Both the position numbers and the translations under genes were made by a program. The notes below the pieces were generated by a model. It was not told the DNA's origin and ran no database searches. It saw only the letters and a program-made list of their open reading frames with translations. DNA of 32,000 nt from an uncultured Dehalococcoidia bacterium (GTDB lineage: Bacteria; Chloroflexota; Dehalococcoidia; Lucifugimonadales; UBA1123). The stretch lies in assembly GCA_964588665.1 (NCBI GenBank), contig CAZPQQ010000007.1:1-32000 (forward strand), read 5' to 3'. Shown here in pieces: positions 5,739 to 26,079 of the stretch. The stretch's first letter is position 1. The number at the start of each line of letters is the position of its first letter.

Positions 5739-5822
5739 GACTATGTTCCCTCCGTTGGCGGCGACTTTGACTGTCTTCTGCTGATGTTCGAGGCGCGTCT
5801 GTCACATGGCGGGTTGGTTCGC

Positions 5823-5989
5823 CGAGGTCCTTCGACGGGTCTCCACGGACGGACGAAACTTGGTCTGTCGAGGTCCTTTGACAAGCTCAGGACGAACGGG
5901 CGAGAGTGACTTCAGCACGAACGGACCAGGGTAGGCTCAGGACGGGCGGACGGACTGTTTTTTCCGTTCGTGGTGAGCCCGTCGAACCA
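5823..5989. repeat. REP-like structured intergenic repeat, copy B (composite)
   Basis: Internal direct repeat cgaggtcctt[c/t]gac at 5823-5836 and 5869-5882. The left arm 5874-5899 (tcctttgacaagctcaggacgaacgg) can pair imperfectly with the right arm 5964-5989 (ccgttcgtggtgagcccgtcgaacca). The right arm is the inverted match of 4431-4456. Confidence 0.7.
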
Positions 5990-6040
5990 CAGGCCTCCGC
6001 CTCCCTGCTATTCGCCGAAGAACTTCCGACTCAGCGCACC

Positions 6041-7039
6041 TTAGTCGTATGCCGCGACGATCTCCTCTTCCACTCGCTGGAAGGCTTCGACGTCGCCTGT
6101 AGGGATGCCTCCGAACATGATCTCGTCGACTCCGGCGTCTGCGAACTCGCCGATTCGTTCGATGATGTAGTCGCGCGGGCCAGCCAGCGAGCCTGACTCT
6201 TTCGGCTCCATCAGCGGCCCCGCATAGTTGCCGTGAAGGCGGTCCATCGCTCTGTATCCGCGCGCTTCGTTGTAGCGTTCAGCCTCGGCCTTGTCGTCGG
6301 TGATCAGCAGCGGCGCCAGCAGCGTGCGCTTGATCTCCGCCGGGTCGCGGCCCACGGCTTCGCAGTGCCGTTCGAGCACGCCCATCTTGTGCTGGTACAG
6401 CTCCATCGACATGCCTCGGCCCGACCAGCCGTCCAGGTTGAAGATGTCGCCGTGCATCGCCAGCGTCCGCATGGTGCGTTGCTCGCCCGTACCGCCGATG
6501 AGGATCGGAATGTGAGGCTCTTGATAGCTGCCGGGCGACAGCGGCGCTTCGTCGAGCTGGTAGTAGCGACCGTTGTAACTGACCGCGCCCTCGGCGGTGA
6601 AGAGCTTGCGGATGAGCTCGCACGCTTCCTCGAACCTGTCCGACCGCTCCTTCATCGGAGGGAAGTCCCATCCGAATGCCTCGTGCTCTCGCTGGAACCA
6701 GGCCGCGCCAAGCGCCAGGACGAAACGTCCCTTGGACGCCTGGTCGAGCGTGGCGGCCATCTTCGCGACCAACGCCGGATTGCGGTACGTGTTGCCGAGC
6801 ACCAGGTGGCCGAGGACGAGCTTGTCCGTCATGCCGGCGGCCACCGCCGTGAGCGTGTAGCCCTCGAACGCAGTGCCGAGTTCCTGCTCGCGGTCCCCAC
6901 CTGGAGAACCCGGTGAAGGCGGCAAAAAGTGGTCGGCGAACCACAGGCTGTCCCATCGCCCGGCCTCCAACGCCTCGATCGAGGCGCGGATGTCGTCCCA
7001 TGTCGTTCTGTAGCAACTAACCTGAACTCCGAATTTCAT
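6041..7039 (-). CDS. LLM-class F420/flavin-dependent oxidoreductase
   Basis: MKFGVQVS...WDSLWFADHF start and LGAAWFQREHEAFGW motif, typical of the F420-dependent LLM subfamilies. Length 332 aa. Confidence 0.85.
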   Translation of the reverse strand: MKFGVQVSCYRTTWDDIRASIEALEAGRWDSLWFADHFLPPSPGSPGGDREQELGTAFEGYTLTAVAAGMTDKLVLGHLVLGNTYRNPALVAKMAATLDQASKGRFVLALGAAWFQREHEAFGWDFPPMKERSDRFEEACELIRKLFTAEGAVSYNGRYYQLDEAPLSPGSYQEPHIPILIGGTGEQRTMRTLAMHGDIFNLDGWSGRGMSMELYQHKMGVLERHCEAVGRDPAEIKRTLLAPLLITDDKAEAERYNEARGYRAMDRLHGNYAGPLMEPKESGSLAGPRDYIIERIGEFADAGVDEIMFGGIPTGDVEAFQRVEEEIVAAYD

Positions 7040-7353: not shown

Positions 7354-8697
7354 ATGGCACTATCTGACGGCGCCGAAACCGAAGAGGTGACCGGCGACGC
7401 TAGTCAGCCGCGAGTCCCGCGAATCCCCTGGATCGGCGACAAGCTGTTCTACGGTTGGGTCGTCGTTTTCGTTGGCGCGGCGACCCAGTTTTTGCAGGGC
7501 ACAATCAACCAGGGCTTCACGACGTACCTCGGGCCGCTGCAGCGTGATTTCGGCTGGAGCAGGGCGGTCCTCGCCGGGCCTCGTTCGATCACTTCGGTCC
7601 AGAACTCGATCTTTGGACCGGTCGAAGGTTATTTGATGGACAGGTTCGGGCCCCGCATCATGTCCGTCACCGGTGTCTTCATCATGGGTTTCGGACTCAT
7701 TTTGTTCGGCCTGACGAACTCGCTGTGGATGTACTATCTGGCCAACGTCGTCATCGCGTTGGGCACCGGGTTCTACGGCATGTTGATCATGTCCGTGGCA
7801 GTCAACAACTGGTTCCGGCGCAAGCGAACGATCGCTCAATCCGTGATGCTTCTCGGCTGGTCGCTGGCCGGGGTGGTAGGGGTTCCGGCGGTGGTCCTAG
7901 TGCAGGCAGCGTTCGGGTGGGAGGTGTCCGCGATCGGCTCCGGCTTGATCATCTGGGCCGTGGGCATCCCGACCTCGATGCTGCTGCGCACCAAGCCGGA
8001 GCCATACAGATTGCTGCCGGACGGCGATACCAACACCGCCGAAGCCACGGTCGCCGCCGGCCGAAACCCCGTCGACGCGGAGCACGACTTCACCCTTCGG
8101 GAAGCCGTTCGGACCCGCACGTTCTGGTTCATTTCGGTTGGCTCGGCCATCGGCAACCTTGGCATGGGAACGGCGCAGATCCACCTCTTCCTTCACCTCG
8201 AACAAGGCGTTGGGTTGGAGCGAACGACCGCGGCGCTCGTGTGGACGGTCGCCAGCCTCTCGAACATCCCAGCACGGCTGGCCGCGGGCTTCTTGGGAGA
8301 CCGATTGCCCAAGAACCATCTGATGGGATTCGCCATAACGATGATGGCGATTTCGGTCCTCGTCCTCGGCGTCGCGACCACAGCGCAGATGGCATTCGTA
8401 TACGCCGTACTCTACGGAATCGGCTGGGGTGTCCGGACGCCGGTCATGAACGCGATGCAGGGAGAGTACTTTGGCCGGACTTCCTTGGGCGTCATCAGCG
8501 GATGGCTCCAATCGCTCAGCCTTCCGTTGACCATCGCTGCGCCGGTTCTCGCGGGTTACGTGGCGGACGTTCAAGACAGTTACCGCACCACGTTCATCGT
8601 CGTGTCGATCCTGATGATGGCGGGGGCCGCGCTCATGTTCATGGCGGCTCGTCCCGCGCCTCCGAAGCGACTGGAGCAGGGCTCATCGGCCGCCTGA
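7354..8697 (+). CDS. MFS transporter (oxalate/formate-antiporter-like / monocarboxylate-type)
   Basis: About 12 hydrophobic segments split by a central hydrophilic loop (RTKPEPYRLLPDGDTNTAEA...). The FYGWVVVF..ATQF start and the loop-2/3-like MDRFGPR motif are typical of MFS_1. Confidence 0.85.
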   Translation: MALSDGAETEEVTGDASQPRVPRIPWIGDKLFYGWVVVFVGAATQFLQGTINQGFTTYLGPLQRDFGWSRAVLAGPRSITSVQNSIFGPVEGYLMDRFGPRIMSVTGVFIMGFGLILFGLTNSLWMYYLANVVIALGTGFYGMLIMSVAVNNWFRRKRTIAQSVMLLGWSLAGVVGVPAVVLVQAAFGWEVSAIGSGLIIWAVGIPTSMLLRTKPEPYRLLPDGDTNTAEATVAAGRNPVDAEHDFTLREAVRTRTFWFISVGSAIGNLGMGTAQIHLFLHLEQGVGLERTTAALVWTVASLSNIPARLAAGFLGDRLPKNHLMGFAITMMAISVLVLGVATTAQMAFVYAVLYGIGWGVRTPVMNAMQGEYFGRTSLGVISGWLQSLSLPLTIAAPVLAGYVADVQDSYRTTFIVVSILMMAGAALMFMAARPAPPKRLEQGSSAA

Positions 8698-8803: not shown

Positions 8804-11800
8804 TCAGGGCAGGCTGCGACCGATCCATCGGGTGTTGTACTCCCGCAGATACTCCTGGCGCTGCTGATCGTCGGGATAGGACTCCTGATCCGTGTACGGA
8901 TAGCTCGACATGTCATGGAAGGGAAGCGGGGCCACGGTGGAGCCGTAGGCCGTGTCGGCCCACATGTCCTTAACGTACCCGTCGACGTACACGAGGAAGT
9001 CGCGCGTCCATCCCTGGGGCAGCGGACCTGCTTCGTCGGCTGAGAAGCTTATGGCGATCTCCTCGCCGTGGTGCATGATCACGTACTGGTCGTCGGGCGC
9101 GTCCAGCAGCGGCGTGACCTCCCCGTACCTCGTATAGTACCCCGCCTGGTCGCCAAACGGCGCCGAGTCGTTGGGTTGGTCGTAGAGGAACACGGGCGGG
9201 TTGTTGCCGTCCGGCAGATGAAGCTTCGGGTAGCCTCTCCAGCGCAGATCGGCTTGTTCGGGCTTCAACGTAGTGATGTTCACCGCCGCGGCATCGGTCG
9301 CCGTGCTCACCCTGATTCTATCCCAGTAGACCTCCATGTTGGTCGCAATCCTGACGCGGTAGTCATCGGACAGGAACACGCCGGTCAGATCCACGGTCAT
9401 CGTCTTGGGCAGGCCGGCTGGGAAGCCCAGGTCCTCGACAACCGTGACCCATCGGCCTTCGTCATCGCCCCATACCTGGAGGATCGGCGCCTGCAGGTTG
9501 ATCCCGTCATCCAAGGCTTGCCGCACGCTTTCCGAGTTCCAGTACTCTATCCAGCTGTCCATGAGCAGCAGGACTCTTTCGGCGCCGGAGAGGTCTCCGA
9601 GGTCGAGAACGACAGAGTGTGATTTGGCAATTCCTTGGTACGGGAGGAGTTGAAACGTCGGATAAGTCCGGTCGAATTCGCTTATCGCCGGAAGGATGTC
9701 TCGCCCGCCGCCGTCCACTGCCGTCACGGGCAGCCTGGCGTCGCCCGTGACGTGGACCTCGAACTCGGGGAACGGCGGGCCCATCTTCAGCACCTCGTTG
9801 GGGTGGACCTCCGTGCCCGAAGGATGGTCCACCACGAGCAATCGGACCTGATCGATGTAGCTGACTTCCTCGAGTTGCTCGGTGATCCTGATCGTGTATT
9901 TCCCGTCTCGCTCCTGCAACAGGCGCCCGTCGACTTTGACGTACTCGTCGGAGTCGGGCTGATAGTAGGTGTCCGGTCCGACAAGGATGCCGATGAAACC
10001 GGCGCCCAGGAAATCGGTGATGAACGCGTATCCTTCCCCGTCCCAGGTGTAGAGCAGCGGACAGGACGACTTTCGGCCCTGCTCCGTGATGGTCAGCGCG
10101 CGGTTCACGGCGACATCGTTGGGCCGCTGCCGAAGCCCGCTGGGCCAAAGAACGTGAACCATCCCGATCTGCTGTTGATCGCCGAGGCCGAATAGCAGAT
10201 TGGGGCTGTTTTGAGACAGGTACCCCGATCCGCCGGACACCTCTCTCTTCTGCCGGCGTCCTCCCGTCTTGACCTCCACTTTGCTGCCGAGACCCATGCG
10301 GTTGCTGCCGTCGCCTACCGTCGTCACCTTGAGCCACGTGTTTCGGGCGCCGCCTTCGTTTTCCAACAGCATGGGGCTGGCGCCATTGCGGACGATAAAA
10401 GCGTCCACATCCCCGTCGTCGTCGTAGTCGCCCAAAGTCAGTCCACGTCCGCCGGCGCCGCCCACGCCCTGTAGTCCGACATCGGCCGTTGCGTCGATGA
10501 AACCTCCGTCGCCGAGGTTCCGGTAGAGCACAACCGCGCCCTCGGATTGGTCGACCACCAACATGACATCTAGATAACCGTCGTTGTCGTAATCGACAAA
10601 GGAGGCACCCCAGGCTCGACGGTCCTCGCCCGCCGCTGCCGCCTGCTGGAAGGATGCGTCGACGGCGAATGAGCCGTTGCCGAGGTTGCTGAGCAGCGAC
10701 ACACCGTTCGTCGTCCCGGAGTTGACTAGCAAGTCGACGAAGCTGTCGCCGTTATAGTCGCCGGCCGCCACGCCTCGGGATGCGGTCACACCCGATAATC
10801 CCGCTTCGGCAGTGACATCGGCAAAACTGCCGTCCCGGTTGTTGCTGTACAAGACGCCGGGCTGTCCGTCGGCGCCAACATAGAGGTCAGAGTCGTTGTC
10901 GCCGTCGAAGTCTAGGAACACTGCCGTGACGCTTCTGCCGATGCCGTCTAGTCCGGCTTCGGCCGTCATGTCGACGAAGGCGCCATCGCCTGTGTTGCGG
11001 TAGAGAATGTTGCGTTGGCCAGGCAGCTCTTGCGGGAATCGAACCGTGGCTCCGCCGGCCATTCCCTGTGCATCGACGTAGTTGGCGACAAACAGGTCGA
11101 GGAAGCCGTCGTGATCGTAATCCACGAATGTGGCGCCCATGCCGAAGCCCGCGGCGTCGATGCCCGCCTCGACCGTGATGTCGGTGAAGGTCCCGTCGCC
11201 GTCGTTGCGGAAGAGGACGTCGGGCCCGAAGTTCGTGACGTACAGGTCGGGGTCGAGATCGTTGTCGAAATCTCCGAAGGCGACGCCCATCCCCTGCCCT
11301 GGATGGCCGACGCCTGCCTGGCTCGTGACGTCGGCGAAGGTCCCGTTTCCTTCGTTGCGATAGAGGGCGTTGCCGGATGACGCCTCGGTCGGGCCGGCGT
11401 TCACGACGTAGAGGTCGAGGAGTCCGTCTCCGTCGAAGTCCAGAAAGGCGGCGCCTGAGCCGTAGTACGGGGCAACGTGTTCGCGTAGGTACCGTGGGTC
11501 CGACGCAATGCGCTGACCGGGCTCGAACTCAGGGTGTAGCGCGGCGCCGTGAACGACCTCAATCCCCGATTCAGCGGTGACGTCGGCGAACCGCACTCCT
11601 ATGCCAGTCGATGCTGTAGCCGCGTCGCTCGGCCCATCGGGGTCCTCGACTGCCAAGGCGTATCTGCCTTCCTCGAGGTATACGCGTTGGCCGATCTCGT
11701 CGGCGCTTCTTCGGATGACGAACTTGTTGTAGGTGAGCATCTCGTTCAAGCCGCGCTTCTCGTCGCCGGCCTGTAGGAGGATCAGTCCCAAATTGTAGTG

Positions 11801-12340
11801 CGCCGCAGCTAGGGAACCGTCCACCTGAATGGCCTTCTCCAGCCGCTCTCTCGCCTCGGGGATTCTTCCGGTGTCGAAGTAGATCTTCCCGAGATAATAG
11901 TTGGTGTATGCATCGTTGGGGTCCACCCGCAGGACCTCGTTGAAGCGCTCGATAGCGGCCGCCTCTTGCCCCTGCAGAAGATCGAGTCGAGCCAGAACAT
12001 AGTTCAGATGAACGTTGTCGGGATCGAGCCCCTCGACCGAGCTCAGCGCCTGACGCGCCCTCTCGTCGGCCCCCGTGTGAAAGTAGGCTATTCCCAGGTT
12101 GACTCGGCCGTAGACGTATTCAGGGTCAAGCTCCACGGCCTTTTGAAACTCCTCGACGGCGTCGTTGAGCTGGCCCATTTGCATCAGGTTGATTCCGCGC
12201 ACGTTGTGGATGCGAAGCTGGTCGGCCTTATCCGGCACCGCATCTCGAAAGACGACGACGTAGACGCCGACCACGATTCCGGCCAACGCAACGATCGCGG
12301 CCAGCGCGATGTCTCTTTTCGATACGTCGATCATCTGCAC
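8804..12340 (-). CDS. Membrane-anchored TPR + FG-GAP/VCBS propeller + ASPIC/UnbV (CRTAC1-family) protein with a 420-aa unassigned C-terminal region
   Basis: N-terminal TM segment (IALAAIVALAGIVVGVYVVVF), TPR-like helices at about aa 40-200, and seven Ca-binding-type motifs (FLDFDGDGLLDLYV ... LGDYDDDGDVDAFI). The ASPIC/UnbV signature is NTWLKV...GLGSKVEV...SGGSGYLSQNSPNLLFGLG. Start is GTG 12340 or ATG 12334, 31 nt downstream of the preceding gene. Confidence 0.85.
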   Translation of the reverse strand: MQMIDVSKRDIALAAIVALAGIVVGVYVVVFRDAVPDKADQLRIHNVRGINLMQMGQLNDAVEEFQKAVELDPEYVYGRVNLGIAYFHTGADERARQALSSVEGLDPDNVHLNYVLARLDLLQGQEAAAIERFNEVLRVDPNDAYTNYYLGKIYFDTGRIPEARERLEKAIQVDGSLAAAHYNLGLILLQAGDEKRGLNEMLTYNKFVIRRSADEIGQRVYLEEGRYALAVEDPDGPSDAATASTGIGVRFADVTAESGIEVVHGAALHPEFEPGQRIASDPRYLREHVAPYYGSGAAFLDFDGDGLLDLYVVNAGPTEASSGNALYRNEGNGTFADVTSQAGVGHPGQGMGVAFGDFDNDLDPDLYVTNFGPDVLFRNDGDGTFTDITVEAGIDAAGFGMGATFVDYDHDGFLDLFVANYVDAQGMAGGATVRFPQELPGQRNILYRNTGDGAFVDMTAEAGLDGIGRSVTAVFLDFDGDNDSDLYVGADGQPGVLYSNNRDGSFADVTAEAGLSGVTASRGVAAGDYNGDSFVDLLVNSGTTNGVSLLSNLGNGSFAVDASFQQAAAAGEDRRAWGASFVDYDNDGYLDVMLVVDQSEGAVVLYRNLGDGGFIDATADVGLQGVGGAGGRGLTLGDYDDDGDVDAFIVRNGASPMLLENEGGARNTWLKVTTVGDGSNRMGLGSKVEVKTGGRRQKREVSGGSGYLSQNSPNLLFGLGDQQQIGMVHVLWPSGLRQRPNDVAVNRALTITEQGRKSSCPLLYTWDGEGYAFITDFLGAGFIGILVGPDTYYQPDSDEYVKVDGRLLQERDGKYTIRITEQLEEVSYIDQVRLLVVDHPSGTEVHPNEVLKMGPPFPEFEVHVTGDARLPVTAVDGGGRDILPAISEFDRTYPTFQLLPYQGIAKSHSVVLDLGDLSGAERVLLLMDSWIEYWNSESVRQALDDGINLQAPILQVWGDDEGRWVTVVEDLGFPAGLPKTMTVDLTGVFLSDDYRVRIATNMEVYWDRIRVSTATDAAAVNITTLKPEQADLRWRGYPKLHLPDGNNPPVFLYDQPNDSAPFGDQAGYYTRYGEVTPLLDAPDDQYVIMHHGEEIAISFSADEAGPLPQGWTRDFLVYVDGYVKDMWADTAYGSTVAPLPFHDMSSYPYTDQESYPDDQQRQEYLREYNTRWIGRSLP

Positions 12341-12371: not shown

Positions 12372-14126
12372 TCATTGCCGCTCCTTGGACACGGTCAGGA
12401 TCTGGTTGGCGTCGACGCGACTCAGGGTCTGCAGCTCTCCGTCAGGCCAACGGATCTCGACCGAATCGACGAACTCGTTTTCGCCCAGTCCGAAGTGCAC
12501 CCGGGTGTCGTTCATGGACAGGTAGCTGGAGCCAGCGACCACCGTCGTCTGCTGTCTTGCGCCGCCCGCATTGATCGTCACCGTTGCGCCGATCGCCTGC
12601 CTGTTGCCCGCGTCGCCTTTGAGATTGAGGACGAGCCACTTCCCCGCGGCGGCGCCGTTGTTCTGCAACAGCTTGACGCCTTCGCCCCGAGCCACAATGA
12701 GAATGTCCAAGTCTCCGTCATTGTCGTAGTCGGCGAAAGACGCGCCTCTGCCTACATCTTTCGTTGCCCACACCTCGCCGGCCACGTCGTTGACGAGGAC
12801 GAAGCCCTCCTCTCCCTTGTTCCGAAAGAGGAGGTTTCGCATTGTGTCGAGCTTTGTCTTGTCTTCGGGCGGCTCAAACGTGCTTCCGTTGACCACGAAC
12901 ACATCCAGGCGGCCGTCGTTGTCATAGTCGATGAAACCGACCCCCCAGCCAACGTAGCTCAACGAGCTCTCGCCCACGTCGGAGGCGATCCGGTCGACGA
13001 ACCTGATCTGATCGTCTATGGATTGGTCGGACATGTTGCGAAACAGTGCGTCGTCCTGAGCGATCCAATGGGTTATCCAGAGGTCCGGGTCCAGGTCGCC
13101 GTCGTAGTCGCCCACCGCGATGCCCATCGATCCCCTGGCGTCGGCGGTTCGGGCGTATTCGGCGACGTTCTCGAACGTGCCGTCCCCGCTGTTGATGAAG
13201 AGGGCGTCAGGGGATATGTCGTTCGCAACGTACAGGTCAGGGAGTCCGTCGGAGTTTAGATCGGCGAAGACAGCTTGCAGGCTGCGGCCCTCCGGATCGG
13301 CCACTCCCGCCGACGACGCCACTTCGGTAAACGTGCCGTCTCCGTCGTTGCGGTAGAGGCGGTTGGCCAGCGGGTCGTAGGAGAACGGATTCAGCGTGAA
13401 GGGGGTGTCGAGGCCGTACTGGCTGTTGAGCAGTGTGGCGGATTCGCCGCTGTCGCGCTGGAACGCTACATACTGGGGCACGTAGAGGTCGAGGTCGCCG
13501 TCGAGGTCGTAGTCGGCCACGGTCGATCCGGCAGGCCAGCCGCCCTCGATCGACAGGCCGCTCTCCACCGTAACGTCTTCGAAGACACCGGCGCCTTCGT
13601 TGCTGTAGAGCTTTTGCCAGCCGAACCCGGTCGTAAACAGGTCGATGTCGCCGTCGCCGTCGTGATCGAACCACACCGCGCCCATCCCCAGTCCCGTCTG
13701 CCTGATGTCAGAAGCCTCGGTCACGTCCTCGAAGGCGCCGTCGCCGAGGTTTCTGAAGAGCTTGCCCCGATCCATCGGGCGTTGACCCTGCTCGTCGCGC
13801 GAGCTGTTGACGATGAACAGATCGACGAAGCCGTCGGCGTCGTAATCTCCCCACGCTGCCCCGGACCCCATGTCTTCTGTCAGGACCGACGTCCTCACGT
13901 CGTTGAAGTGACTGAAGACAATGCCTGCCTCAGAGGTCACGTCGACAAACTGAACGCCGGCATCCTCGCTCCGAACGCTCCGTTGTTCGTCGGGCACGAA
14001 TCCCGGCGCCTCTTCCACACCCGACCTACATGCCCCGGCGCCGAACAGCGCAGAGATCGTCAAGGCAACAAGCAAGCCCGGCCCTGCGCATCTATTCACT
14101 CTCGCCAATTGCGAAGAATCTCCCAT
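12372..14126 (-). CDS. CRTAC1-family protein (FG-GAP/VCBS propeller + ASPIC/UnbV), secreted or lipoprotein
   Basis: Signal-like N-terminus ending ...ALFGAGAC, and seven DxDxDG-type motifs (WGDYDADGFVDLFI ... FADYDNDGDLDILI). The C-terminal ASPIC/UnbV signature is GKWLVLNL...AIGATVTI...AGSSYLSMNDTRVHFGLG. The ATG at 14126 overlaps the upstream gene by 35 nt. An in-frame GTG at 14099 would reduce the overlap to 8 nt. Confidence 0.85.
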   Translation of the reverse strand: MGDSSQLARVNRCAGPGLLVALTISALFGAGACRSGVEEAPGFVPDEQRSVRSEDAGVQFVDVTSEAGIVFSHFNDVRTSVLTEDMGSGAAWGDYDADGFVDLFIVNSSRDEQGQRPMDRGKLFRNLGDGAFEDVTEASDIRQTGLGMGAVWFDHDGDGDIDLFTTGFGWQKLYSNEGAGVFEDVTVESGLSIEGGWPAGSTVADYDLDGDLDLYVPQYVAFQRDSGESATLLNSQYGLDTPFTLNPFSYDPLANRLYRNDGDGTFTEVASSAGVADPEGRSLQAVFADLNSDGLPDLYVANDISPDALFINSGDGTFENVAEYARTADARGSMGIAVGDYDGDLDPDLWITHWIAQDDALFRNMSDQSIDDQIRFVDRIASDVGESSLSYVGWGVGFIDYDNDGRLDVFVVNGSTFEPPEDKTKLDTMRNLLFRNKGEEGFVLVNDVAGEVWATKDVGRGASFADYDNDGDLDILIVARGEGVKLLQNNGAAAGKWLVLNLKGDAGNRQAIGATVTINAGGARQQTTVVAGSSYLSMNDTRVHFGLGENEFVDSVEIRWPDGELQTLSRVDANQILTVSKERQ

Positions 14127-15432
14127 CCCATGTCCCTACATATATCGTTCCGTCCGAGGCTACCGCCGGCGACGCTTCGATCGCCTGCTCCACGGGCACG
14201 TCTCCCAATCTCGTCTCCCATCTCAATTCACCTTCAAGCGACAGAGCATACAACACCCCGTCCCATCCGCCGAAATAGACAGTGCCGTCGGACACGACCG
14301 CTGGTGAGGATCGAATCCACTGGGAGAGCGGGAACTCCCATTTCCTATCTCCATTCGGCCCGAAGGCGATGAACGGATAGGACGCGACCTGCTGGGGTTG
14401 GCTCGATCCCAACGGGGCCGTTCCTGTCGTGCCAACGTATATGGCGCCGTCACGCCCCAGAGCAGGGGAGGCGAAGACCATGAGTCCTTTGCCGACGGCG
14501 ACAGACCACTTCTCGATCCCGTCCGAGGTCAAAGCGTACAGCTTGCCATCGCCTGAGCCGAAGTAGACGGCGCCGTCCGGGGCAATCGCTGCTGGCGAGT
14601 CTATACGCCCTCCGGTTTCGAAAGACCACTTCAGGGAACCGTCGTGGTTCAGCGCGTAGAATGTCCCGTCGTTGGAGCCCACGTACACGGTCCCGTCCTT
14701 GCCGATGGAGGGCGCCGCCCTGACATAGTCGTCGGTGGGAAAGCTCCATGCTCGGGCGCCATCGGTGGAGAGGGCTTGGAGCGCCCCTCCGTGGTCGCCA
14801 AAGTAGATCGTCCCGTCGCGGGCCATCGCCGGAGATGAGAGCGATACTCGATGCGACAGGTCCTCGGGGTCGTATCGCCAGAGCGGCTGGCCGTCCAGCG
14901 ACACGGCGTGGAAGGCGCCGTCGTATGAGCCGAACAGAACGGAGTCCCCGGAAATCAGCGGCGTCGTCCTGATCGGCGCCGGCGCCTCCACGCTCCATAT
15001 CACCTCTCCGTTGGGGGTCAGGGCAAACAGGCCATGCCCGGACGTCTCGAACCTGTCCCCTTCCGCCGCCACGTATATCGTGCCGTCTTCTCCGATCGAG
15101 GCGCCGGCGAGTATCCGTTCGCCAAGTTTCTTGCTCCACTTGATCGCAGGCGAATCTATGGCAGGGGCTTCGACGCGGTTCGTGTGGAGGCTGTCGTGTC
15201 CGGAAGTACGCCACGCGCCGTCTTCGGGTTGAATCAGGCCTGCTTTGTCGAGGTCTGGATCGGGGGTCGCCAGACTCGCCGGGCTGGAAGTAGGCTGCGA
15301 CTCGCCACAGCCCGTCGTCAATGAAACCAGGACGAACAGCGCTGCGAGAATACCCAGGATCCGGGCATTCTGGGCGCCACGGCTCTCGGAGAAAATCGCC
15401 GTTACCCTACGTCGGCACGGGGCTGTCATCAC
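14092..15432 (-). CDS. PQQ-like beta-propeller repeat lipoprotein (BamB-fold)
   Basis: Lipobox LVSLTTGC after a hydrophobic signal, then repeated DGTIYV/DGAVYFGS.DG.LYAL...G...W units typical of PQQ-like (PF13360-type) propellers. Confidence 0.8.
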   Translation of the reverse strand: MMTAPCRRRVTAIFSESRGAQNARILGILAALFVLVSLTTGCGESQPTSSPASLATPDPDLDKAGLIQPEDGAWRTSGHDSLHTNRVEAPAIDSPAIKWSKKLGERILAGASIGEDGTIYVAAEGDRFETSGHGLFALTPNGEVIWSVEAPAPIRTTPLISGDSVLFGSYDGAFHAVSLDGQPLWRYDPEDLSHRVSLSSPAMARDGTIYFGDHGGALQALSTDGARAWSFPTDDYVRAAPSIGKDGTVYVGSNDGTFYALNHDGSLKWSFETGGRIDSPAAIAPDGAVYFGSGDGKLYALTSDGIEKWSVAVGKGLMVFASPALGRDGAIYVGTTGTAPLGSSQPQQVASYPFIAFGPNGDRKWEFPLSQWIRSSPAVVSDGTVYFGGWDGVLYALSLEGELRWETRLGDVPVEQAIEASPAVASDGTIYVGTWDGRFFAIGESE

Positions 15433-15459: not shown

Positions 15460-17625
15460 CTACCTGATTTTTCCGGTCTTTTGATTCAGCAACTCGACTT
15501 TGACGGTTGATGACGAGAGGTCGGTAATTGGGAAGGTGAGTCCGCTGTTGTCGGTGGTCACGTCCACGAACTTCTGGTGGAACTTGCGCATCCTCAGGTT
15601 CGCGCTGACGGTGAGAGGCCCCTCAACGTCTTCGGGCACTTCCAGCGTGTAGTCCACCTTTTCCGAGAAGCCCGGGAATATGACCCGCACGTATGTCGTG
15701 CCCACCATGTCCCATAGATTGTGGAGGTAGATGACGTCGCCCTCTTCGTCGATGGGGAACGATCGGAAGTAGTGGGCGTCCGGATCGACATAGTTGTCTT
15801 CGCCCACCCATCCGGAGTGGAACAGCGTCCTGCCGGACGCGTCCACTACCTTGGTTTCGATCCAGGTCTGAATCAGGTCCAGCGGGCCCGTCGGGAACTC
15901 GTGGCCGACTTTTCTGTTGGCGATGACCACGGAGTACTCCAAGGCTTCGGCGGGCTGAACGGACTCGGGGGCGGCGACGTCCGTGGCGACGGCGGGGCCC
16001 TCAAGCCATTTGTCCTGAATCTCCGGCACCAGGTACTCGCCTTTCAGCCATTTCTCGGTCAGCTCCACCTGCTCTTCTTCTCCAAGAAGCCATGGGATCG
16101 CCTGGTTGGCCGCCAGCCATCGATGGTTCCGGTGCTGGCCGGGGTGCGGACCAAAGGGATCGCCTTCGCTCACGCCCGAGCTCGCTTCCTCCACGTTCGG
16201 CGTCAGGGGCATGTGGCACTCGATGCACACGATTGTCTCCGGGCTATCCGGTCCCTGGTTCCACTTGCTCTCTTTCCAGTTGTCCAGTTGGTTCTGGAGC
16301 CTCACCCAGCCGAAGTTGTTGACAGATTCGTCGAGATACTGCTTGTGACAGGTTCCGCAATACTCGGGCAGTTTATAGTGAGCTTTGGAGAGCGATTCTT
16401 TGTGGGTCTGAGGATAGGCTCGAATCAAGAAGCTGCTCAGACGCCCCTTGAGACTGTCCTCGTCTTCCAATTCAAACAGGTACCTCGGCGGAGGGGTGAA
16501 CTCGTAGTTGGCGTTTCCTTTGGAGCCTTGGATCGCCGTTATGCCGTGGCAGACGGTGCAGGAGATTCCTTCTTCGGAGTGCGGGGTCTCTTGTCCCGTC
16601 TTCCCTTGCAGCTCCAGGGCGTCGGCAACTTCGGCTGTCAGACTGCCGGAGAGAATGGATACAGGATTGTGACACCCTCCGCAGTACCTGGTCGATTCGA
16701 TGCCGGTGTCGCCTTCCATCGCGCCGGCCACCGCTTTGAAGAACATGTCGCTGGCAGACCAGGAGTGGGCGCTTGCCTTCCACTCGTCGTAGATGTCCTT
16801 GTGGCACGAGCCGCAGTTCTCGGAGCCCGCCAACACGTCGGCGTTGATCGGGCTTCCTGTGCTGGAGTTGACGTTGCTGGGCAGGAACGGTCCCTGACCG
16901 TACTTGAGTCCGTAATCTTGGACCGGCACACCTGTCGATGCTTCAGGACCCGTGGAAGCGAGAGCGAAGCCGGCTCCGACGACAAGCAATAGGACCGCCA
17001 CGGCCGAGCTTCCTGCCAGCAACCGTCGTTGGGAGCTTCGCAACAAGGGCGCCAACTCCAGCGCCGCACGCCTCCTGACTCTTAGCCATGCCCGCACCAG
17101 GTGCCAGCAAAGGAGCGGCGCCAGGATGAAGCCGCTCCAGGTGTGGACGGTGTCTATCCAGTAGGTGATGCTGGTTCCGAACCACGCCTGCCACGTCAGT
17201 GCCAGTCCACTCGCGGCGCAGACCACGAACATCCAAAAGCTGAGATGCCCGAGAAGCCGGCCCCAGTCAAGGCGCTGCCGCCTTAGAGAGAGGTAGTGTT
17301 TCCAGAGATACCGACTGATGATGGCGCCCGCGACCAGGCCGAGAACGGTGTGGAGCAATACCAGCCATTGGACGGCTTTCCAGGCCCAACCCTGTGACTC
17401 CATGAAATCCGACGGCAACGGGGCGAGATATATTACGAGTCCGCTGAGAATCAGGTAGAGCAGAAGCCCGATTGCCAATGCAAGCAGCTTCGACGCCCAG
17501 CGGCGAGCACCCCCGTCAGGATTCTTCAACGAAGGGTTCACCTGAAGCCTCGTCGCCTCGTCGTCGGTCGCCGATGCCAGGTCGCCACTGTTCCGCTTGA
17601 CGCTTTCGAGCCCGTCAGATCGCAC
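15460..17625 (-). CDS. Fusion protein: 5-TM His-rich membrane module (cytochrome b-like / DUF4405-like) + pentaheme c-type cytochrome domain + C-terminal beta-rich domain
   Basis: Five CXXCH motifs verified on the DNA: CGSCH 16801-16815, CGGCH 16669-16683, CTVCH 16546-16560, CGTCH 16345-16359, CIECH 16213-16227. Five hydrophobic helices lie at aa ~46-225, with His92, His127, His161 and His175 inside helices 2-4. A positive N-terminus (RRWASK) puts the heme domain outside the cell. Confidence 0.85.
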   Translation of the reverse strand: MRSDGLESVKRNSGDLASATDDEATRLQVNPSLKNPDGGARRWASKLLALAIGLLLYLILSGLVIYLAPLPSDFMESQGWAWKAVQWLVLLHTVLGLVAGAIISRYLWKHYLSLRRQRLDWGRLLGHLSFWMFVVCAASGLALTWQAWFGTSITYWIDTVHTWSGFILAPLLCWHLVRAWLRVRRRAALELAPLLRSSQRRLLAGSSAVAVLLLVVGAGFALASTGPEASTGVPVQDYGLKYGQGPFLPSNVNSSTGSPINADVLAGSENCGSCHKDIYDEWKASAHSWSASDMFFKAVAGAMEGDTGIESTRYCGGCHNPVSILSGSLTAEVADALELQGKTGQETPHSEEGISCTVCHGITAIQGSKGNANYEFTPPPRYLFELEDEDSLKGRLSSFLIRAYPQTHKESLSKAHYKLPEYCGTCHKQYLDESVNNFGWVRLQNQLDNWKESKWNQGPDSPETIVCIECHMPLTPNVEEASSGVSEGDPFGPHPGQHRNHRWLAANQAIPWLLGEEEQVELTEKWLKGEYLVPEIQDKWLEGPAVATDVAAPESVQPAEALEYSVVIANRKVGHEFPTGPLDLIQTWIETKVVDASGRTLFHSGWVGEDNYVDPDAHYFRSFPIDEEGDVIYLHNLWDMVGTTYVRVIFPGFSEKVDYTLEVPEDVEGPLTVSANLRMRKFHQKFVDVTTDNSGLTFPITDLSSSTVKVELLNQKTGKIR

Positions 17626-17934: not shown

Positions 17935-19332
17935 ATGTGGATGAATACATCCTGCCGGATATGCGGACAAGAGAACTCCGCTGAAGCTCAATATTGCTCT
18001 AACTGTAGATCTCGACTGGCCACGGGTGACAGCTCGGGCGGAGAGACGGCGGCGACGAGACGAATCGGGTTTCTCGCGGGCGCGAGGCGCAGACATCTGA
18101 CCCTCTGGAGCATGGCCGTTGCGATCGTACTTGTCACGGGCGGTTGGATCGGCTACGCGAACCTAGCCTCGGCTCGTTCTTTTCCTCCTCCATCCTCAGA
18201 CGTCAGCTCCGCCCCGGTGGCGGGAGACTGGCCCATGGTCCAGCGAGAACCGGCTCATTCGGCGTTCGTCACCGAGAGCGGCGCCGAGTTGACGGGCAAC
18301 GTGAAGTGGCGCTTCGAAATCGACGCGCCCATCTTTTCGTCGCCTGCCGCCGTTGGGGATCGTTTGTACTTGAGCACCGGAGACAAAAGAATCTTGGCTC
18401 TCGACGCCGCCTCCGGCGACCTGCTCTGGGAGCACACCGTACTCGGCCCGGTGAACTCGTCGCCTGCCGTTGCCGGCGATCTCGTCTACGTCGGGCTCCG
18501 AGATGGCAGGGTGATTGCGTTGAGCCGGGAAACGGGTGAGAAACGGTGGGAATTCCAGACCGCCGACCTCGTTTATTCCTCGCCAGCCGTGTTCGAGGGG
18601 GTTGTTTACATCGGTTCGTGGGATGGCCGATTGTACGCACTGGACGCTGTCACCGGAGAGGAGCGCTGGAATTATCTGACTGGCGGTCACATCACATCAG
18701 ATCCTGCCGTGAACCAGGAAGTGACCGCGGTGATATCACAGGACTGGTACCTCAATCTGATAGACCTCGCCACCGGAAAGCATCGCCTGGATTTCAGGCT
18801 TGCCTCTGTCAGCGGATCGCCCACAATCCATGAAGACCTCGTTTTCGTGTCGGACGAACGCGGGGTTGTCAGAGCGATAGACTGGCAGGAACGTGAAGCT
18901 CGATTCGAGAAGCTTTCCCGTCGTCTGAAGACTCAGCTTTTCGCTTTCGGCCTTACGGATTCCCTTCCATCGTCAAAGGGATTCGTCTGGGGATTCAGAA
19001 AGCCAGGTGAGCGTTTCGTAGGCACACCCGCAGTGGCAAACGAAAAGGTCTATGCAGGCTCAGCCTCCGGAAACGTCTACGCGCTGGAGGAGTTCACCGG
19101 AGAACTGGTCTGGAGTTTTGCCGGGGAATCCAGCATAACGAGTTCGCCGTCAGTGGTTGGCCAGACGGTCTTCGTCGGAGATGAGAGCGGCCGCCTGTAT
19201 TCCATCGACGCACTCACCGGAGACTTGCGGTGGGAATTCGTGGCTGACGATTCCATTTCCTCCACGCCGGTTGTCGCCAACAAGACGCTGTATGTCTCTT
19301 CCCTGAGCGGGACCCTCTACGCCATCGAGTAG
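17935..19332 (+). CDS. Zinc-ribbon / single-TM / PQQ-like beta-propeller protein
   Basis: N-terminal CRIC-x10-CSNC (Cys7, 10, 21, 24) zinc ribbon, a TM segment LTLWSMAVAIVLVTGGWIGYANL, then repeated SSPAV.GD.VYVG..DGR.YALD..TGE..W propeller blades. Confidence 0.8.
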   Translation: MWMNTSCRICGQENSAEAQYCSNCRSRLATGDSSGGETAATRRIGFLAGARRRHLTLWSMAVAIVLVTGGWIGYANLASARSFPPPSSDVSSAPVAGDWPMVQREPAHSAFVTESGAELTGNVKWRFEIDAPIFSSPAAVGDRLYLSTGDKRILALDAASGDLLWEHTVLGPVNSSPAVAGDLVYVGLRDGRVIALSRETGEKRWEFQTADLVYSSPAVFEGVVYIGSWDGRLYALDAVTGEERWNYLTGGHITSDPAVNQEVTAVISQDWYLNLIDLATGKHRLDFRLASVSGSPTIHEDLVFVSDERGVVRAIDWQEREARFEKLSRRLKTQLFAFGLTDSLPSSKGFVWGFRKPGERFVGTPAVANEKVYAGSASGNVYALEEFTGELVWSFAGESSITSSPSVVGQTVFVGDESGRLYSIDALTGDLRWEFVADDSISSTPVVANKTLYVSSLSGTLYAIE

Positions 19333-19445: not shown

Positions 19446-22319
<2,874 letters not shown>

Positions 22320-22733: not shown

Positions 22734-24686
22734 CTAGTCCCTGAATCCGGTCTCATCTTCCCTGAGGTCCTGGTCAACCCAGACGTACGCCCACCTGGAA
22801 GAGTAGTCCACGAATGCGAGGACGCGCTCTCCGTTGTGGTTCTTCAGCCAAGGCTGCCAGTAGTCGCCACCCAGGCCCGCGGGGGTCTGGACGGAGGCCG
22901 CCAACTCGAGGAATTTGCTGGAGGCTGCTTTAATCAGGCGCGCCTGCTCTTCTGAGTCGGTGGCCGTGAGAACGTCCTCCCACATCTGGTTGTACTCGGG
23001 GTCGTTCAGGTTCGACCGGTTCCACTGGTGGCCTACCCTGAAGTCGTTAAGAGCGTTCGGGCGACCGGTAACGTTGTTCGCGAAGAAGTCGAACTGCTTC
23101 TCGAACAGTCTGCTCTGCAGGACCGGGCCGTCGACGGGCTCCATGGTTACCTTGACGCCGATGTCGTCCCAGAATCCGATCGAAATCTCGGCTGCTTCGA
23201 TCTGCATCTGGTTGGAGTTTGAGATCAGCAGGTCAATCTCGAATCGCGTGCCGTCCGAACCTCTGGTCAGGCCGGCTTCATCCAGAAGCGCTTCCGCTCC
23301 GTCTGGATTGTATACGTGGTAGTCCTGCACCGATTGCGGCTGCATGGACAGATCTTCGTAGTGCAACGGCCATTCGGGCTGGAGCGGGAATGCCAGCATG
23401 ACGGAATCGCCCTCGAACAGCGCCCTCGTGTAGACGTCTCGGTCGATGGCCATGTTCATGGCGACGCGAACCTTGAGGTCGTCGAAGGGAGGCTTGTTCA
23501 TCGGCATGAAGTAGCCGAAGGAGTCTTCCATAGCCAGGGCTCGACCCAACTCAGGGTTGGATTCTTCCAAAGTTGGCCTGTCTGACGCACGAACGCGCAT
23601 CAGCTCGTCAATCTGTCCCGTTCGGAGGGCAGCCAGTCGTGTGGCTTCCTGAGGGATGATGACCTGAGTGACGCCGTCCAGGAATGGAATCTGATATTCC
23701 GTCCCGTCGAACGTATATTTGCCCCAGTAGTCGGGGTTCTTTTCGTGTTCGATAGTGCTGCCAGCGGTGTAGCCCTTGACCATCCAAGGTCCGGTGCCTG
23801 AGTGGTTCATCGGTTCGTCGGTGCCCAGTTCAATTGTCTCAGGAGCGTCGGCGATCAGATAAGGTCCCCAAGCGAACTCGTAGCCCCAGAAGGAGATGGG
23901 CTTATTGGTGTGGTACGTGACTGTGTCGTTGACTCCGTCGCCGTCTGAGTCGTCACTGGAGACGCTGTCCACGAAGTCGTGTCGGGGCCAGCGGCATTCG
24001 ATGACGCGCTGTGCATCGGCCGTGAGTTCGTCAGCAGTAACAGCCCTACCGAAGGTGGGATGTCTGTTCTGCCATTTGATGCCTTCGCGCAGGTGGAAGC
24101 TGTATGTCAGAGGATCGGGAACTTCCCAACGGTCTGCCAGCGCGCCAGTCGCAAGCTTGTCGGTTCCGATTCCGAGCCTCGGCTGGAACGTCGTCAGGCC
24201 TTGGCCTGATGGTCCCAGATCGTAGTCCCCGATCAGGAAGTTTTCCACCGAGAAGCTAAGTTGTGTCTGCGCTTTGAATTCGCACATGTCCCATTTTGCG
24301 CCCGGATCGGACCCAAGAGCCACCCTCAACGTTCCGCCATATTCCGGGCCGCCTGTCGTCTCAACGACTTTCGCCGTTGTCTGCAGTTGTACCGGAGATG
24401 TCGAGACTCCTGCTACAGCAGGGACCGCAGTGGGCGCCGCTGGCGCTGCGGGCGCCGCTGGCGCTGCTGGCGCTGGAGCGGCCGGGGCTGCTGCAGGGGC
24501 CGGCGCGGGAGCTGGCGCTGCGGGAGCTGGCGCTGCGGGAGCTGGTGCTGCAGCAGGCGCGGGCGCCGCGGGCGCGGGAGCGGCTTCTTCGTCGTCCGAC
24601 GAACATGCAGCCAGAACCAGAGCGGCGATCATCGCAACGACCACCAGTCCGATCCAGGACCTAAATCTACGATTGTTATTCAACAC
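22734..24686 (-). CDS. ABC transporter substrate-binding lipoprotein, family 5 (peptide/nickel, DppA/OppA-like) with a long Pro/Ala linker
   Basis: Lipobox ALVLAAC, about 58 aa of (P/A) low complexity, then an SBP_bac_5-like body (GGTLRVAL..., NPDYWG, PFDDLKVR.A...AIDR). Preferred start is the GTG at 24686, preceded by GGAGG with a 5-nt spacer. The track start is the GTG at 24698. Confidence 0.9.
   Translation of the reverse strand: MLNNNRRFRSWIGLVVVAMIAALVLAACSSDDEEAAPAPAAPAPAAAPAPAAPAPAAPAPAPAPAAAPAAPAPAAPAAPAAPAAPTAVPAVAGVSTSPVQLQTTAKVVETTGGPEYGGTLRVALGSDPGAKWDMCEFKAQTQLSFSVENFLIGDYDLGPSGQGLTTFQPRLGIGTDKLATGALADRWEVPDPLTYSFHLREGIKWQNRHPTFGRAVTADELTADAQRVIECRWPRHDFVDSVSSDDSDGDGVNDTVTYHTNKPISFWGYEFAWGPYLIADAPETIELGTDEPMNHSGTGPWMVKGYTAGSTIEHEKNPDYWGKYTFDGTEYQIPFLDGVTQVIIPQEATRLAALRTGQIDELMRVRASDRPTLEESNPELGRALAMEDSFGYFMPMNKPPFDDLKVRVAMNMAIDRDVYTRALFEGDSVMLAFPLQPEWPLHYEDLSMQPQSVQDYHVYNPDGAEALLDEAGLTRGSDGTRFEIDLLISNSNQMQIEAAEISIGFWDDIGVKVTMEPVDGPVLQSRLFEKQFDFFANNVTGRPNALNDFRVGHQWNRSNLNDPEYNQMWEDVLTATDSEEQARLIKAASSKFLELAASVQTPAGLGGDYWQPWLKNHNGERVLAFVDYSSRWAYVWVDQDLREDETGFRD
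24411..24584. repeat. GC-rich low-complexity coding repeat (Pro/Ala linker) including three tandem 15-nt units
   Basis: The unit gggagctggcgctgc occurs at 24507-24521 and 24522-36, and with one mismatch at 24537-51. It encodes (PAPAA)-type repeats on the minus strand. Confidence 0.9.
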
Positions 24687-25125
24687 TTTTACCTCCACGG
24701 ATTATGTTAAGTACCTAAACGCCCTTGCGGGCGACCACCTTCGTTCAACCAACGATCGGATTCGGGAAATGTCGAAGATTCTCCCAGTCTTGAATTCGGA
24801 GGCACAGCGCCCTAATCAAGCATTCGGATAGTATAGACCGCTCCTCCTACGGTCGTCAATCTTATTTCGCTCTAAATTCCCTAGTTTTGCCATCTAGCAG
24901 AGAATTACGCCTCAAAGGCCTAATTGGATTTGATCTCTACGAGAATTCGGTGAGAACCTCGCCATCAGAAACCTGGCAACAGCGCCAAGCCCTCACACGC
25001 CTGCCCGGATAGTCGCCCCGAGAACGGGAAGATCCGGCGTCTCGGTGAGCGCATCGCCCCGCAGCCACGCAAGCGCGTCAATGCAACCCTATCGCGACGA
25101 TCGCTGGCGCCTGCGTACGGTGATC

Positions 25126-26064
25126 CTAGAAACGTCCTCCCGACGTGCCTCTCAACTTCGGATCCAGAAGGTCCCTCAACGCATCGCCGAACATGTTGCT
25201 GCTGTATACGACGATGCTCAGGACAAGGCCAGGCCAAACGGACAACATGGGCGACGAGAACAGGTGATTCATCCCTGATCCGCTGAGCATGCCGCCCCAA
25301 CTTGGCTGTGGAGGCGGAACGCCGAGCCCGAGGAAGCTCAAACCGGCTTCCGCCAGCATCATGCCTGGCATGCGCGTGGTGACCAATACCAACAGAAACG
25401 GCGCCACGTTGGGAAGCATATGCCGCAGCAATATTCTCAACGTCGACGCGCCATTGGCCTGGGCTGCCTCAATGTACGCATTTTGCCTGATGCCGATAAC
25501 GGCGCCTCTCACCGATCTTGAGCCGCCGAGGCCATAGGACAACCCCAAAATGAATACGATGTTCCACAGTCCAGGCCCCACGACCGCAACCAATAGGATA
25601 AGCAGGATGAGGTCAGGGAATACCAGCCAAGCGTCGATAAAACGTTGGACAATGAGATCGACTTTGCCGCCAAAATATCCGGACGGCAAACCGATGGACA
25701 CGGATATTACCAAGGAGACCGCGCTGCCTACCACGCCGACGATCATAGAGATGCGAGCGCCGTATATGATGCGACTGAAGATGTCGCGCCCCAGGTTGTC
25801 AGTGCCCAGAAAGTGCTCGAACGACGGCCCCGCCAGAAAGTCTTGGCGAGACATTTCGTTGAATCCAAATGGAGCAAGTACGTTGGCGAAGACACCGGTG
25901 ACGAAGAATACCAGCACGATGGCCGCTGAGGCGGTGCCCAACGGCTTCGTCTTGACCAGTCTGACGAAAAAGTCCATGGCCCGGCTTCGTTGCCGAAGCG
26001 GCCTCGTGACTTGCCTCGGCGCCTCGACTGGCGTCCCCGGGACTCTAGCTTCCTTTTCTTCCAT
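25126..26064 (-). CDS. ABC transporter permease (DppC/OppC-like)
   Basis: BPD_transp_1-type membrane protein with the N-terminal DppC-like FLGTDNLGRDIFSR motif and an EAA-like loop (AYIEAAQANGAS). GAGGAG lies 8 nt upstream of the ATG. Confidence 0.9.
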   Translation of the reverse strand: MEEKEARVPGTPVEAPRQVTRPLRQRSRAMDFFVRLVKTKPLGTASAAIVLVFFVTGVFANVLAPFGFNEMSRQDFLAGPSFEHFLGTDNLGRDIFSRIIYGARISMIVGVVGSAVSLVISVSIGLPSGYFGGKVDLIVQRFIDAWLVFPDLILLILLVAVVGPGLWNIVFILGLSYGLGGSRSVRGAVIGIRQNAYIEAAQANGASTLRILLRHMLPNVAPFLLVLVTTRMPGMMLAEAGLSFLGLGVPPPQPSWGGMLSGSGMNHLFSSPMLSVWPGLVLSIVVYSSNMFGDALRDLLDPKLRGTSGGRF

Positions 26065-26079
26065 TCTTCCGGTTCTCCT

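Follow-up and report, generated by a model that had tools for sequence, protein, structure and literature searches.

This analysis concerns one gene in a stretch of 32,000 nucleotides from an uncultured Dehalococcoidia bacterium (NCBI GenBank assembly GCA_964588665.1, contig CAZPQQ010000007.1, positions 1 to 32,000 of the forward strand); the whole stretch is referred to as the window. The gene lies on the minus strand at 15460..17625. Its product can be described as a b2c5 cytochrome, that is, a single polypeptide and putative transmembrane electron carrier in which a five-helix membrane module, likely to bind two b hemes, is joined to a domain with five c-type heme sites. Relatives of the gene are consistently encoded together with a CRTAC1-like beta-propeller protein and, in most cases, a tetratricopeptide repeat (TPR) protein. 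The explanation that we favour, with modest confidence, is that the protein moves electrons outward across the membrane and serves an extracytoplasmic reduction in which the CRTAC1-like and TPR partners take part.

The membrane module and its histidines

The cytochrome gene is a working gene, because the ratio of nonsynonymous to synonymous substitution rates (dN/dS) is low both overall and in each domain. The comparison was made with the orthologue in the closest genome match, Dehalococcoidia bacterium UBA2160, which is 91% identical over the full length. The ratio is 0.107 for the entire gene, 0.14 for the membrane module, 0.06 for the heme-bearing cap and 0.09 for the immunoglobulin (Ig)-like part, which means that all three are under purifying selection. 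The open reading frame (ORF) holds no in-frame UGA. More than 235 full-length homologues were found, and the databases name them only "multiheme c-type cytochrome" or "hypothetical". Conservation figures below come from 49 aligned full-length homologues with identities of 38-75%. These 49 also underlie an AlphaFold2 model (mean predicted local distance difference test (pLDDT) 79.9, predicted TM-score 0.80) that has five long helices, then a helical heme region, and then a seven-stranded beta-sandwich from about amino acid (aa) 541. The five-helix module precedes the heme domain in everything inspected, which comprised all 49 sequences of the alignment and the 80 top-ranking genome loci, and this architecture is firmly established. 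The features of the gene and its membrane module are as follows (TM, transmembrane helix).

15460..17625, minus strand: fused b/c-type cytochrome gene; GTG start, 721 aa in the ORF list
16957..17490, minus strand: membrane module, aa 46-223; AlphaFold2 helices with pLDDT of about 90, weak DUF4405 match at aa 128-180
17350..17352, minus strand: codon of H92, outer half of TM2; invariant in 49/49, on the conserved helix face, codon checked
17296..17298, minus strand: codon of H110, cytoplasmic end of TM2; invariant in 49/49, takes the place earlier given to H127
17143..17145, minus strand: codon of H161, outer end of TM4; invariant in 49/49, on the conserved face
17101..17103, minus strand: codon of H175, inner end of TM4; invariant in 49/49, on the conserved face

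An earlier interpretation made from the letters of the window (the sequence-only reading) had placed five hydrophobic helices at aa ~46-225. The model agrees, with helices at 46-67, 80-114, 121-149, 155-186 and 192-223. Hydropathy peaks are clear for TM1, 2, 3 and 5, and TM4 falls under the 1.4 threshold. Lysine plus arginine counts are 7 in the N-terminal tail, 5 in loop 2-3 and 6 in loop 4-5, against 1 in loop 1-2 and 0 in loop 3-4. By the positive-inside rule this distribution puts the N-terminus inside the cell and the heme-c domain outside it, as had been proposed. Mean conservation is 0.59-0.63 in TM1-4 and 0.41 in TM5. It looks as if TM1-TM4 form the heme-b bundle and TM5 (192-223) is a linker that takes the chain outward. 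The Dehalococcoidia clade has an 11-residue insertion in the outer loop between TM1 and TM2 (aa 72-82).

The four histidines previously assigned to the membrane were H92, H127, H161 and H175. Three of these are indeed invariant. H127, however, is replaced by tyrosine in 44 of the 49 homologues and faces away from the conserved side of TM3, at an angle of 179 degrees to it, and H110 is the fourth invariant histidine instead. Only 10 columns of the 197-aa N-terminal module (N-module) are invariant, and 4 of them are these histidines. H92 and H110 lie 18 residues apart on TM2 at the same angular position in a helix-face analysis, and H161 and H175 lie 14 residues apart on TM4. When the AlphaFold2 helices are combined with the topology, H92 and H161 fall in the outer half of the membrane and H110 and H175 at its cytoplasmic surface.

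What kind of module is this? The sequence-only reading had suggested a four-histidine b-type cytochrome of the FdnI/HydC kind. The first part of that suggestion holds, in that TM2 and TM4 carry two invariant histidines each and DUF4405 (PF14358) is matched by 15/49 homologues at E<0.01 (best E 1.6e-5). DUF4405 is distinguished by four central, most conserved histidines, and here these are H92, H110, H161 and H175. The second part does not hold, since Ni_hydr_CYTB is matched by 1/49 (E 0.0046). PepSY_TM is likewise matched by 1/49. A separate model of aa 36-232 has a pLDDT of 89.6, and the weak fold matches listed for it are all two-heme-b transmembrane carriers. Dcytb, plant cytochrome b561 and SpNOX stand at the top (probability 0.89-0.98), with STEAP1 and subunit C of fumarate reductase (QFR) further down (0.18 and 0.14). 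HMMER and hhalign both set H161 and H175 on the two heme histidines of helix B of cytochrome b. These alignments are non-significant (E ~0.1-0.2), and the cytochrome b found in the profile search of PDB sequences is an actinobacterial one. The placement recurs and may be regarded as suggestive. Direct hhalign comparisons of the N-module with a PepSY_TM-like protein (locus L005) and a cytochrome b (locus L003) were also non-significant, with a probability below 1%.

A profile of the N-module retrieved 536 cluster representatives at E<=1e-3 from among 1.84 billion proteins. With so few, the N-module must count as a distinct subfamily of its own. Separate b-like and c-like genes had been thought worth looking for elsewhere, but this exhaustive search revealed no free-standing N-module. 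The short hits end within the module, stop inside the c domain or carry low-complexity tails that look frameshifted, and they are best read as fragments or frameshifted calls. As far as can be seen from these sequences, the module is confined to fusion with the c domain. Overall, it is likely to be a DUF4405-like four-helix bundle plus linker helix that binds two b hemes; both the heme b binding and the pairing of the histidines are what we infer from these comparisons.

The outer domain and its partner genes

The remainder of the protein consists of a five-heme cap and an Ig-like stem.

16006..16842, minus strand: five-heme cap, aa ~262-540; verified CXXCH motifs, Pfam and 5ze8 matches
16801-16815, 16669-16683, 16546-16560, 16345-16359 and 16213-16227, minus strand: CXXCH sites, starting at aa 271, 315, 356, 423 and 467; motifs verified
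15478..16005, minus strand: Ig-like beta-sandwich stem, aa 541-716; seven strands in the model, Foldseek alignment to 5ze8
15877..15912, minus strand: loop KVGHEFPTGPLD, aa 572-583; carries invariant H575, in the non-heme tail
15700..15729, minus strand: loop YLHNLWDMVG, aa 633-642; carries invariant H635

All five heme motifs named by the sequence-only reading were verified (aa 271-467), and the motif that it had pointed out in the non-heme tail is the loop KVGHEFPTGPLD. Only one other CXXCH occurs in the window, in a 113-codon ORF at 23884-24225 on the plus strand, opposite an SBP_bac_5 gene. As had been remarked, the annotated ORFs of the window include no cytochrome-maturation gene. On the cap, Pfam reports Cytochrome_C554, MtrC II/IV and C7. 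A hidden Markov model match to 5ze8_A, the pentaheme cytochrome c552 of Thermochromatium tepidum, covers heme sites 1-3 (E 3.4e-6). Foldseek also finds 5ze8, and it is the sole significant fold match (E 6.1e-9, target TM-score (TMt) 0.60 and 16% identity in an alignment of 498 columns, the target having 385 residues). This fold relationship concerns the cap and stem together. The Ig-like part with its invariant loops has no PDB sequence match, and a profile of aa 455-721 against PDB sequences returned nothing at E<=10.

Conservation in the outer domain is concentrated around the hemes. The heme sites and five to six further invariant histidines are kept across phyla at 38-42% identity. Candidate distal heme ligands are the invariant H287, H408, H501, M303 and M472, together with H498 (47/49). 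Judged from the sequences, H287, H408, H501, H575 and H635 plus H498 could supply every one of the five hemes with a second ligand, two of these ligands coming from the stem. Heme site 1 is unusual in being CX4CH (CGTxGCH) in 44/49 homologues; it is CXXCH in five sequences of the Dehalococcoidia clade only, at aa 271-275 of the window protein. Only ten cysteines are invariant or nearly so, and all ten are in heme motifs.

The stem contributes two loops to this pattern. In KVGHEFPTGPLD the invariant residues are K572, G574, H575, P578, T579, G580, P581 and D583. In YLHNLWDMVG they are H635, N636, L637, W638, V641 and G642, with M640 in 48/49. Both loops are invariant, yet pLDDT is below 50 at 577-583 in the first and at 632-649, spanning the second. 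This is expected of segments that pack on cofactors missing from the model. By analogy, it is proposed that KVGHEFPTGPLD reaches a cap heme in the manner of the D-G-U-P loop of the polysulfide reductase MccSep (PMC13510729). The c domain has the compact cap-plus-Ig fold of the enzyme kind seen in 5ZE8 and MccSep, and is not the wire-like conduit that had been imagined.

The second line of evidence comes from the genes that follow the cytochrome.

14092..15432, minus strand: PQQ_2/BamB-like beta-propeller gene (Pfam); start 27 nt past the cytochrome stop codon
12372..14126, minus strand: CRTAC1-like partner, 584 aa; five FG-GAP_3 repeats plus UnbV_ASPIC (Pfam)
8804..12340, minus strand: TPR domain fused to a second CRTAC1-like propeller, 1178 aa (Pfam); last gene of the same-strand run

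In the window the run is thus cytochrome (17625-15460), PQQ_2-like (15432-14092), CRTAC1-like (14126-12372) and TPR-CRTAC1-like (12340-8804). As listed, the CRTAC1-like ORF begins at 14126 and shares 35 nt with the PQQ_2-like ORF, whose stop is at 14092. This reflects either translational coupling or a true CRTAC1-like start further downstream.

Relatives of the cytochrome occur in at least 527 species-representative genomes from more than ten phyla. These include Acidobacteriota, Gemmatimonadota, Bacteroidota (Rhodothermales and Saprospiraceae among them), Planctomycetota and Elusimicrobia, and further KSB1, Krumholzibacteriia, Latescibacterota, Calditrichota and Dehalococcoidia. Gemmatimonadota, Acidobacteriota, Bacteroidota and Planctomycetota, in which the family is common, are best known as aerobic heterotrophs. 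The protein had been called unusual for a SAR202-like aerobe, but this distribution reaches well beyond SAR202 and makes a role in mineral respiration unlikely.

Gene linkage was counted in the 79 loci with at least 1.5 kb of downstream DNA. A CRTAC1-like gene (FG-GAP_3 repeats plus UnbV_ASPIC) starts within 600 nt downstream on the same strand in 74 of them and lies within about 1.5 kb in the remaining five, so that the two are co-encoded in 79/79. In the Dehalococcoidia clade the distance is about 1.3 kb, with the PQQ_2-like gene lying in between. That gene is in the same position in loci L001, L002 and L006 and is absent in other phyla, which makes it an insertion of the Dehalococcoidia clade. 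In most loci of other phyla the gene after the CRTAC1-like one encodes a homologous TPR protein (~290 aa), and about 15 loci encode both parts as a single fusion of ~850 aa. When ORFs were clustered over 83 loci, no neighbour outside the CRTAC1-like family recurred in over 8 of them (the TPR gene was identified separately), and therefore no porin or extra cytochrome gene is conserved beside the cytochrome. This linkage is as firmly established as the domain architecture. It follows that the cytochrome, once described as self-contained, is not so, because a CRTAC1-like propeller is always encoded with it and a TPR protein usually is.

Across loci the CRTAC1-like partner is a protein of ~600 aa with a lipoprotein-like or anchor N-terminus and many calcium-type aspartate motifs, and it matches human CRTAC1 (9etn_A, E 5e-20). 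None of the 10 members viewed contains CXXCH. NCBIfam models of PQQ dehydrogenases all score far under their cut-offs on the PQQ_2-like and CRTAC1-like proteins, and no cofactor-binding signature was found in them. The TPR proteins match Pfam TPR_CcmH_CycH, the TPR domain of the apocytochrome chaperones CcmI/CycH, in L005 (10410-11273; 46.8 bits, cut-off 42), L015 (13883-14752; 32.4 bits) and the N-terminus of the window protein at 8804-12340 (34.4 bits), as well as in L003 (12100-12984). Generic TPR models outscore it on the same proteins. CRTAC1-family genes have also been noted inside clusters of genes for hydrazine-synthase-like heme-c proteins in non-anammox bacteria (PMC12758564), so the association of such propellers with periplasmic heme-c machinery recurs. 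The pairing suggests that a so far undescribed redox system works at the outer side of the cell membrane, and linkage and gene fusion are what imply a role in it for the propeller and TPR partners.

Other genes of the window also carry these domains. A 957-aa protein at 19446-22319 (minus strand) joins an ArsP_1-type permease to a CRTAC1-like FG-GAP/UnbV_ASPIC domain, so a propeller of the partner's family is tied here to a transporter; NCBIfam models of SaoE and of SO_0444 Cu/Zn efflux transporters match the permease part weakly. A second PQQ_2/BamB-like gene lies divergently at 17935-19332 (plus strand), so that the cytochrome is flanked by PQQ_2-like genes on both sides, and its product begins with a CxxC...CxxC zinc-ribbon-like segment (DUF7577).

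Further out, neighbouring genes at 3113-7039 (minus), 7354-8697 (plus), 22734-27045 (minus) and 28836-30640 (plus) encode two luciferase-like monooxygenases, an enolase of the mandelate racemase/muconate lactonizing enzyme (MR/MLE) type, a major facilitator superfamily transporter, a peptide-type ATP-binding cassette importer and two coenzyme A-transferase subunits. The monooxygenases, the enolase and their neighbours are what we take to be SAR202-type gene content. A leucine-rich-repeat gene at 27061-27921 (minus) has a G+C content of 0.525 compared with ~0.61 elsewhere in the window and may have been acquired by horizontal transfer.

Direction of electron flow and alternative explanations

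How might such a protein work? In the favoured scheme two b hemes would be stacked across the membrane in the DUF4405-like bundle TM1-TM4, the outer one held by H92 and H161 and the inner one, at the cytoplasmic surface, by H110 and H175. The fifth helix would lead the chain out to the cap and the Ig-like stem. Electrons would cross the membrane through the b hemes to the five c hemes outside, and their path would end where the cap meets the stem, at a site that the stem's two invariant His-bearing loops help to form. The flow would be outward, and electrons would be supplied either by quinol, oxidised close to the inner heme, or by a reductant in the cytoplasm. The resulting extracytoplasmic reduction would be shared with the membrane-anchored CRTAC1-like calcium propeller and the TPR partner. 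We infer the direction, the donor, the substrate and the contact with the partners.

A two-heme transmembrane module makes sense only if there is another reaction site at the cytoplasmic side, which is established bioenergetics for FdnI, NarI, b561 and NOX. Outward flow is favoured because electron export or reductase activity characterises the closest analogues of both modules, namely MsrQ, FoxB, NOX, b561, CbcL and MccSep.

Several points count against this explanation. The DUF4405 score of the window protein itself is 15.7 bits (E 0.023, aa 128-180) and does not reach the cut-off of 26.7. The Foldseek matches of the N-module in the PDB are weak throughout (E 0.04-0.1, TM-score ~0.35), and no quinone site was identified in the module. 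The CRTAC1-like partner has no conserved cysteine in a 46-sequence alignment, and no redox cofactor was found in it. Finally, the direction of flow is argued from analogy and from nothing else.

What if the electrons run the other way? A substrate would then be oxidised outside, at the cap or the propellers, and electrons would pass through the c hemes and then the b hemes to quinone at the cytoplasmic side. Such an inward redox loop would build proton-motive force, as formate dehydrogenase-N (FdnGHI) does. Such a loop would need a two-heme module whose inner heme lies at the cytoplasmic surface, as FdnI illustrates, and the proposed module is of that kind. Beta-propeller dehydrogenases often pass electrons to c-type cytochromes, and the operon of the Dehalococcoidia has gained a PQQ_2-like propeller. 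The phyla of most hosts are also best known for aerobic organotrophy, and such organisms could benefit from an additional electron input. However, the closest relatives and analogues of both modules work in the opposite sense, the c552 of T. tepidum is low-potential going by the title of its paper, and neither the CRTAC1-like nor the PQQ_2-like proteins show a cofactor-binding signature. Inward flow therefore seems rather unlikely, although it deserves to be kept in mind.

The idea put forward by the sequence-only reading was a self-contained conduit that takes electrons from quinol to insoluble acceptors outside, as CbcL does. In its favour, a b-type module plus a multiheme c domain with no other cofactor subunit is the overall design of CbcL, and Dehalococcoidia lack an outer membrane, which would leave the heme domain at the cell surface. 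Nevertheless, the modules are unrelated to those of CbcL, and the c domain is compact and enzyme-like. Most hosts belong to two-membraned phyla, yet no porin or cytochrome neighbour is conserved over the 83 loci. The cytochrome is always paired with CRTAC1-like and TPR genes, and the family is common in phyla best known for aerobic heterotrophy. This version is improbable.

Another possibility, for which we see just as little probability, is that the neighbouring genes encode assembly factors. On this view the TPR protein, as a CcmI/NrfG-like chaperone, would assist heme attachment at the CX4CH of site 1, and the cytochrome would act alone or with unlinked partners. The L005 protein does score above the TPR_CcmH_CycH cut-off (46.8 vs 42), and this match is the reason for considering a maturation chaperone as a minor rival; the prevalence of CX4CH at site 1 (44/49) is in keeping with it. 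However, generic TPR models score higher, and the fusion of TPR and propeller in some 15 loci and in the window ties the TPR to the propeller. The Dehalococcoidia clade keeps the TPR despite a canonical CXXCH at site 1, and the propeller is left unaccounted for.

That the N-terminal module is a mere anchor or binds something other than heme, with the pentaheme cytochrome fed by another membrane complex, is very improbable: heme b binding is indeed deduced, the DUF4405 score is below threshold and the fold matches are weak, but the domain has drifted to ~30% identity in its spread over more than ten phyla and yet keeps all four histidines invariant, TM5 by itself would suffice as an anchor, and the module is under purifying selection (dN/dS 0.14).

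One reading goes a step further, although with clearly more doubt. Perhaps the cytochrome, the CRTAC1-like propeller and the TPR protein form an unrecognised extracytoplasmic oxidoreductase complex, wired through the b hemes, in which the propeller is substrate-binding or catalytic. If this were true, it would provide the first function for bacterial CRTAC1/ASPIC-UnbV proteins and a second, much wider class of single-polypeptide bc cytochromes besides CbcL, and the complex would be present in hundreds of species from more than ten phyla. In the literature that was searched, neither the cytochrome family nor its pairing with CRTAC1-like genes is described. In any case, the near-obligate linkage offers a practical way into the function of bacterial ASPIC/UnbV proteins. 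Many carriers come from phyla best known as abundant aerobic heterotrophs of soil and sea. The system points to an unexplored exchange of electrons between cells such as SAR202 and something beyond the membrane.

Comparison with known systems

The only solved relative found is the pentaheme cytochrome c552 of T. tepidum (5ZE8), which is described as a heme domain plus an Ig-like domain. It and the window protein have five heme sites in the same order, on a helical cap that is followed by an Ig-like beta-sandwich. However, c552 is soluble and periplasmic and lacks a membrane module, whereas the window protein has a five-helix module in front.

The cap-plus-stem layout is also shared with MccSep/ExtKL (GSU2937-2936). 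This multiheme selenoprotein polysulfide reductase, described in a 2026 paper (PMC13510729), has a five-heme alpha-helical cap and a C-terminal Ig-like stem. Its active site combines a His/Cys-ligated heme 2 with a selenocysteine that sits on the D-G-U-P loop of the Ig domain. Unlike the window protein, which is membrane-anchored, MccSep forms a soluble tetramer and has no b-heme module. The MccSep model NF040886 does match aa 268-367 (31 bits, E 1e-7) but stays far from its cut-off of 250. The window protein is not an MccSep-type enzyme, because no cysteine (or selenocysteine) is conserved outside the heme motifs. Nor is it an NrfA nitrite reductase, because the score for PF02335 is under the cut-off (11.7 vs 24.1 bits) and all five sites end in histidine, with no CXXCK.

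For the membrane module, the nearest comparison is with the DUF4405 domain. A purified DUF4405 protein binds heme b, and the domain, a relation of MsrQ and PepSY-type proteins, is described as carrying electrons across the membrane (PMC11334425). DUF4405, MsrQ, PepSY_TM (FoxB) and FezC have four central conserved histidines in a helical bundle, as here, and carry electrons across the cytoplasmic membrane to extracytoplasmic partners (PMC11334425). There are also differences. DUF4405 is described with six helices whereas the window module has five, and the partners of DUF4405-type proteins are flavinylated proteins or MsrP, whereas in the window protein the counterpart is a fused multiheme c domain.

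By its description, PtdA-PtdF of the ptdABCDEFG cluster (bioRxiv 10.1101/2023.11.21.568154) is an analogue in which the same pairing is split between genes. There the genes are separate and accompanied by porin, tetraheme and decaheme proteins, and no CRTAC1-like gene is described.

The last comparison is with CbcL of Geobacter sulfurreducens, which comes from a dedicated metal-respiring lineage. Here too a transmembrane b-type part and a multiheme c part are combined in one chain, without an iron-sulfur, flavin or molybdopterin subunit. The b module of CbcL is HydC/FdnI-like and the domain order is reversed, with the c domain first. CbcL has nine hemes versus five in the window protein, and both modules are unrelated. 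Membership of the CbcL or FdnI-HydC type can be rejected on the same grounds (Ni_hydr_CYTB in 1/49 only; five hemes, not nine). Since the membrane module is not of the FdnI/HydC type, CbcL is an analogue and not a relative. Its b module has been described as a "three helix" b-type motif, and its authors called the design unique in 2022. The family described here repeats that design with different, unrelated modules, and a CbcL-like device built from these other parts is far more widespread (at least 527 species genomes).

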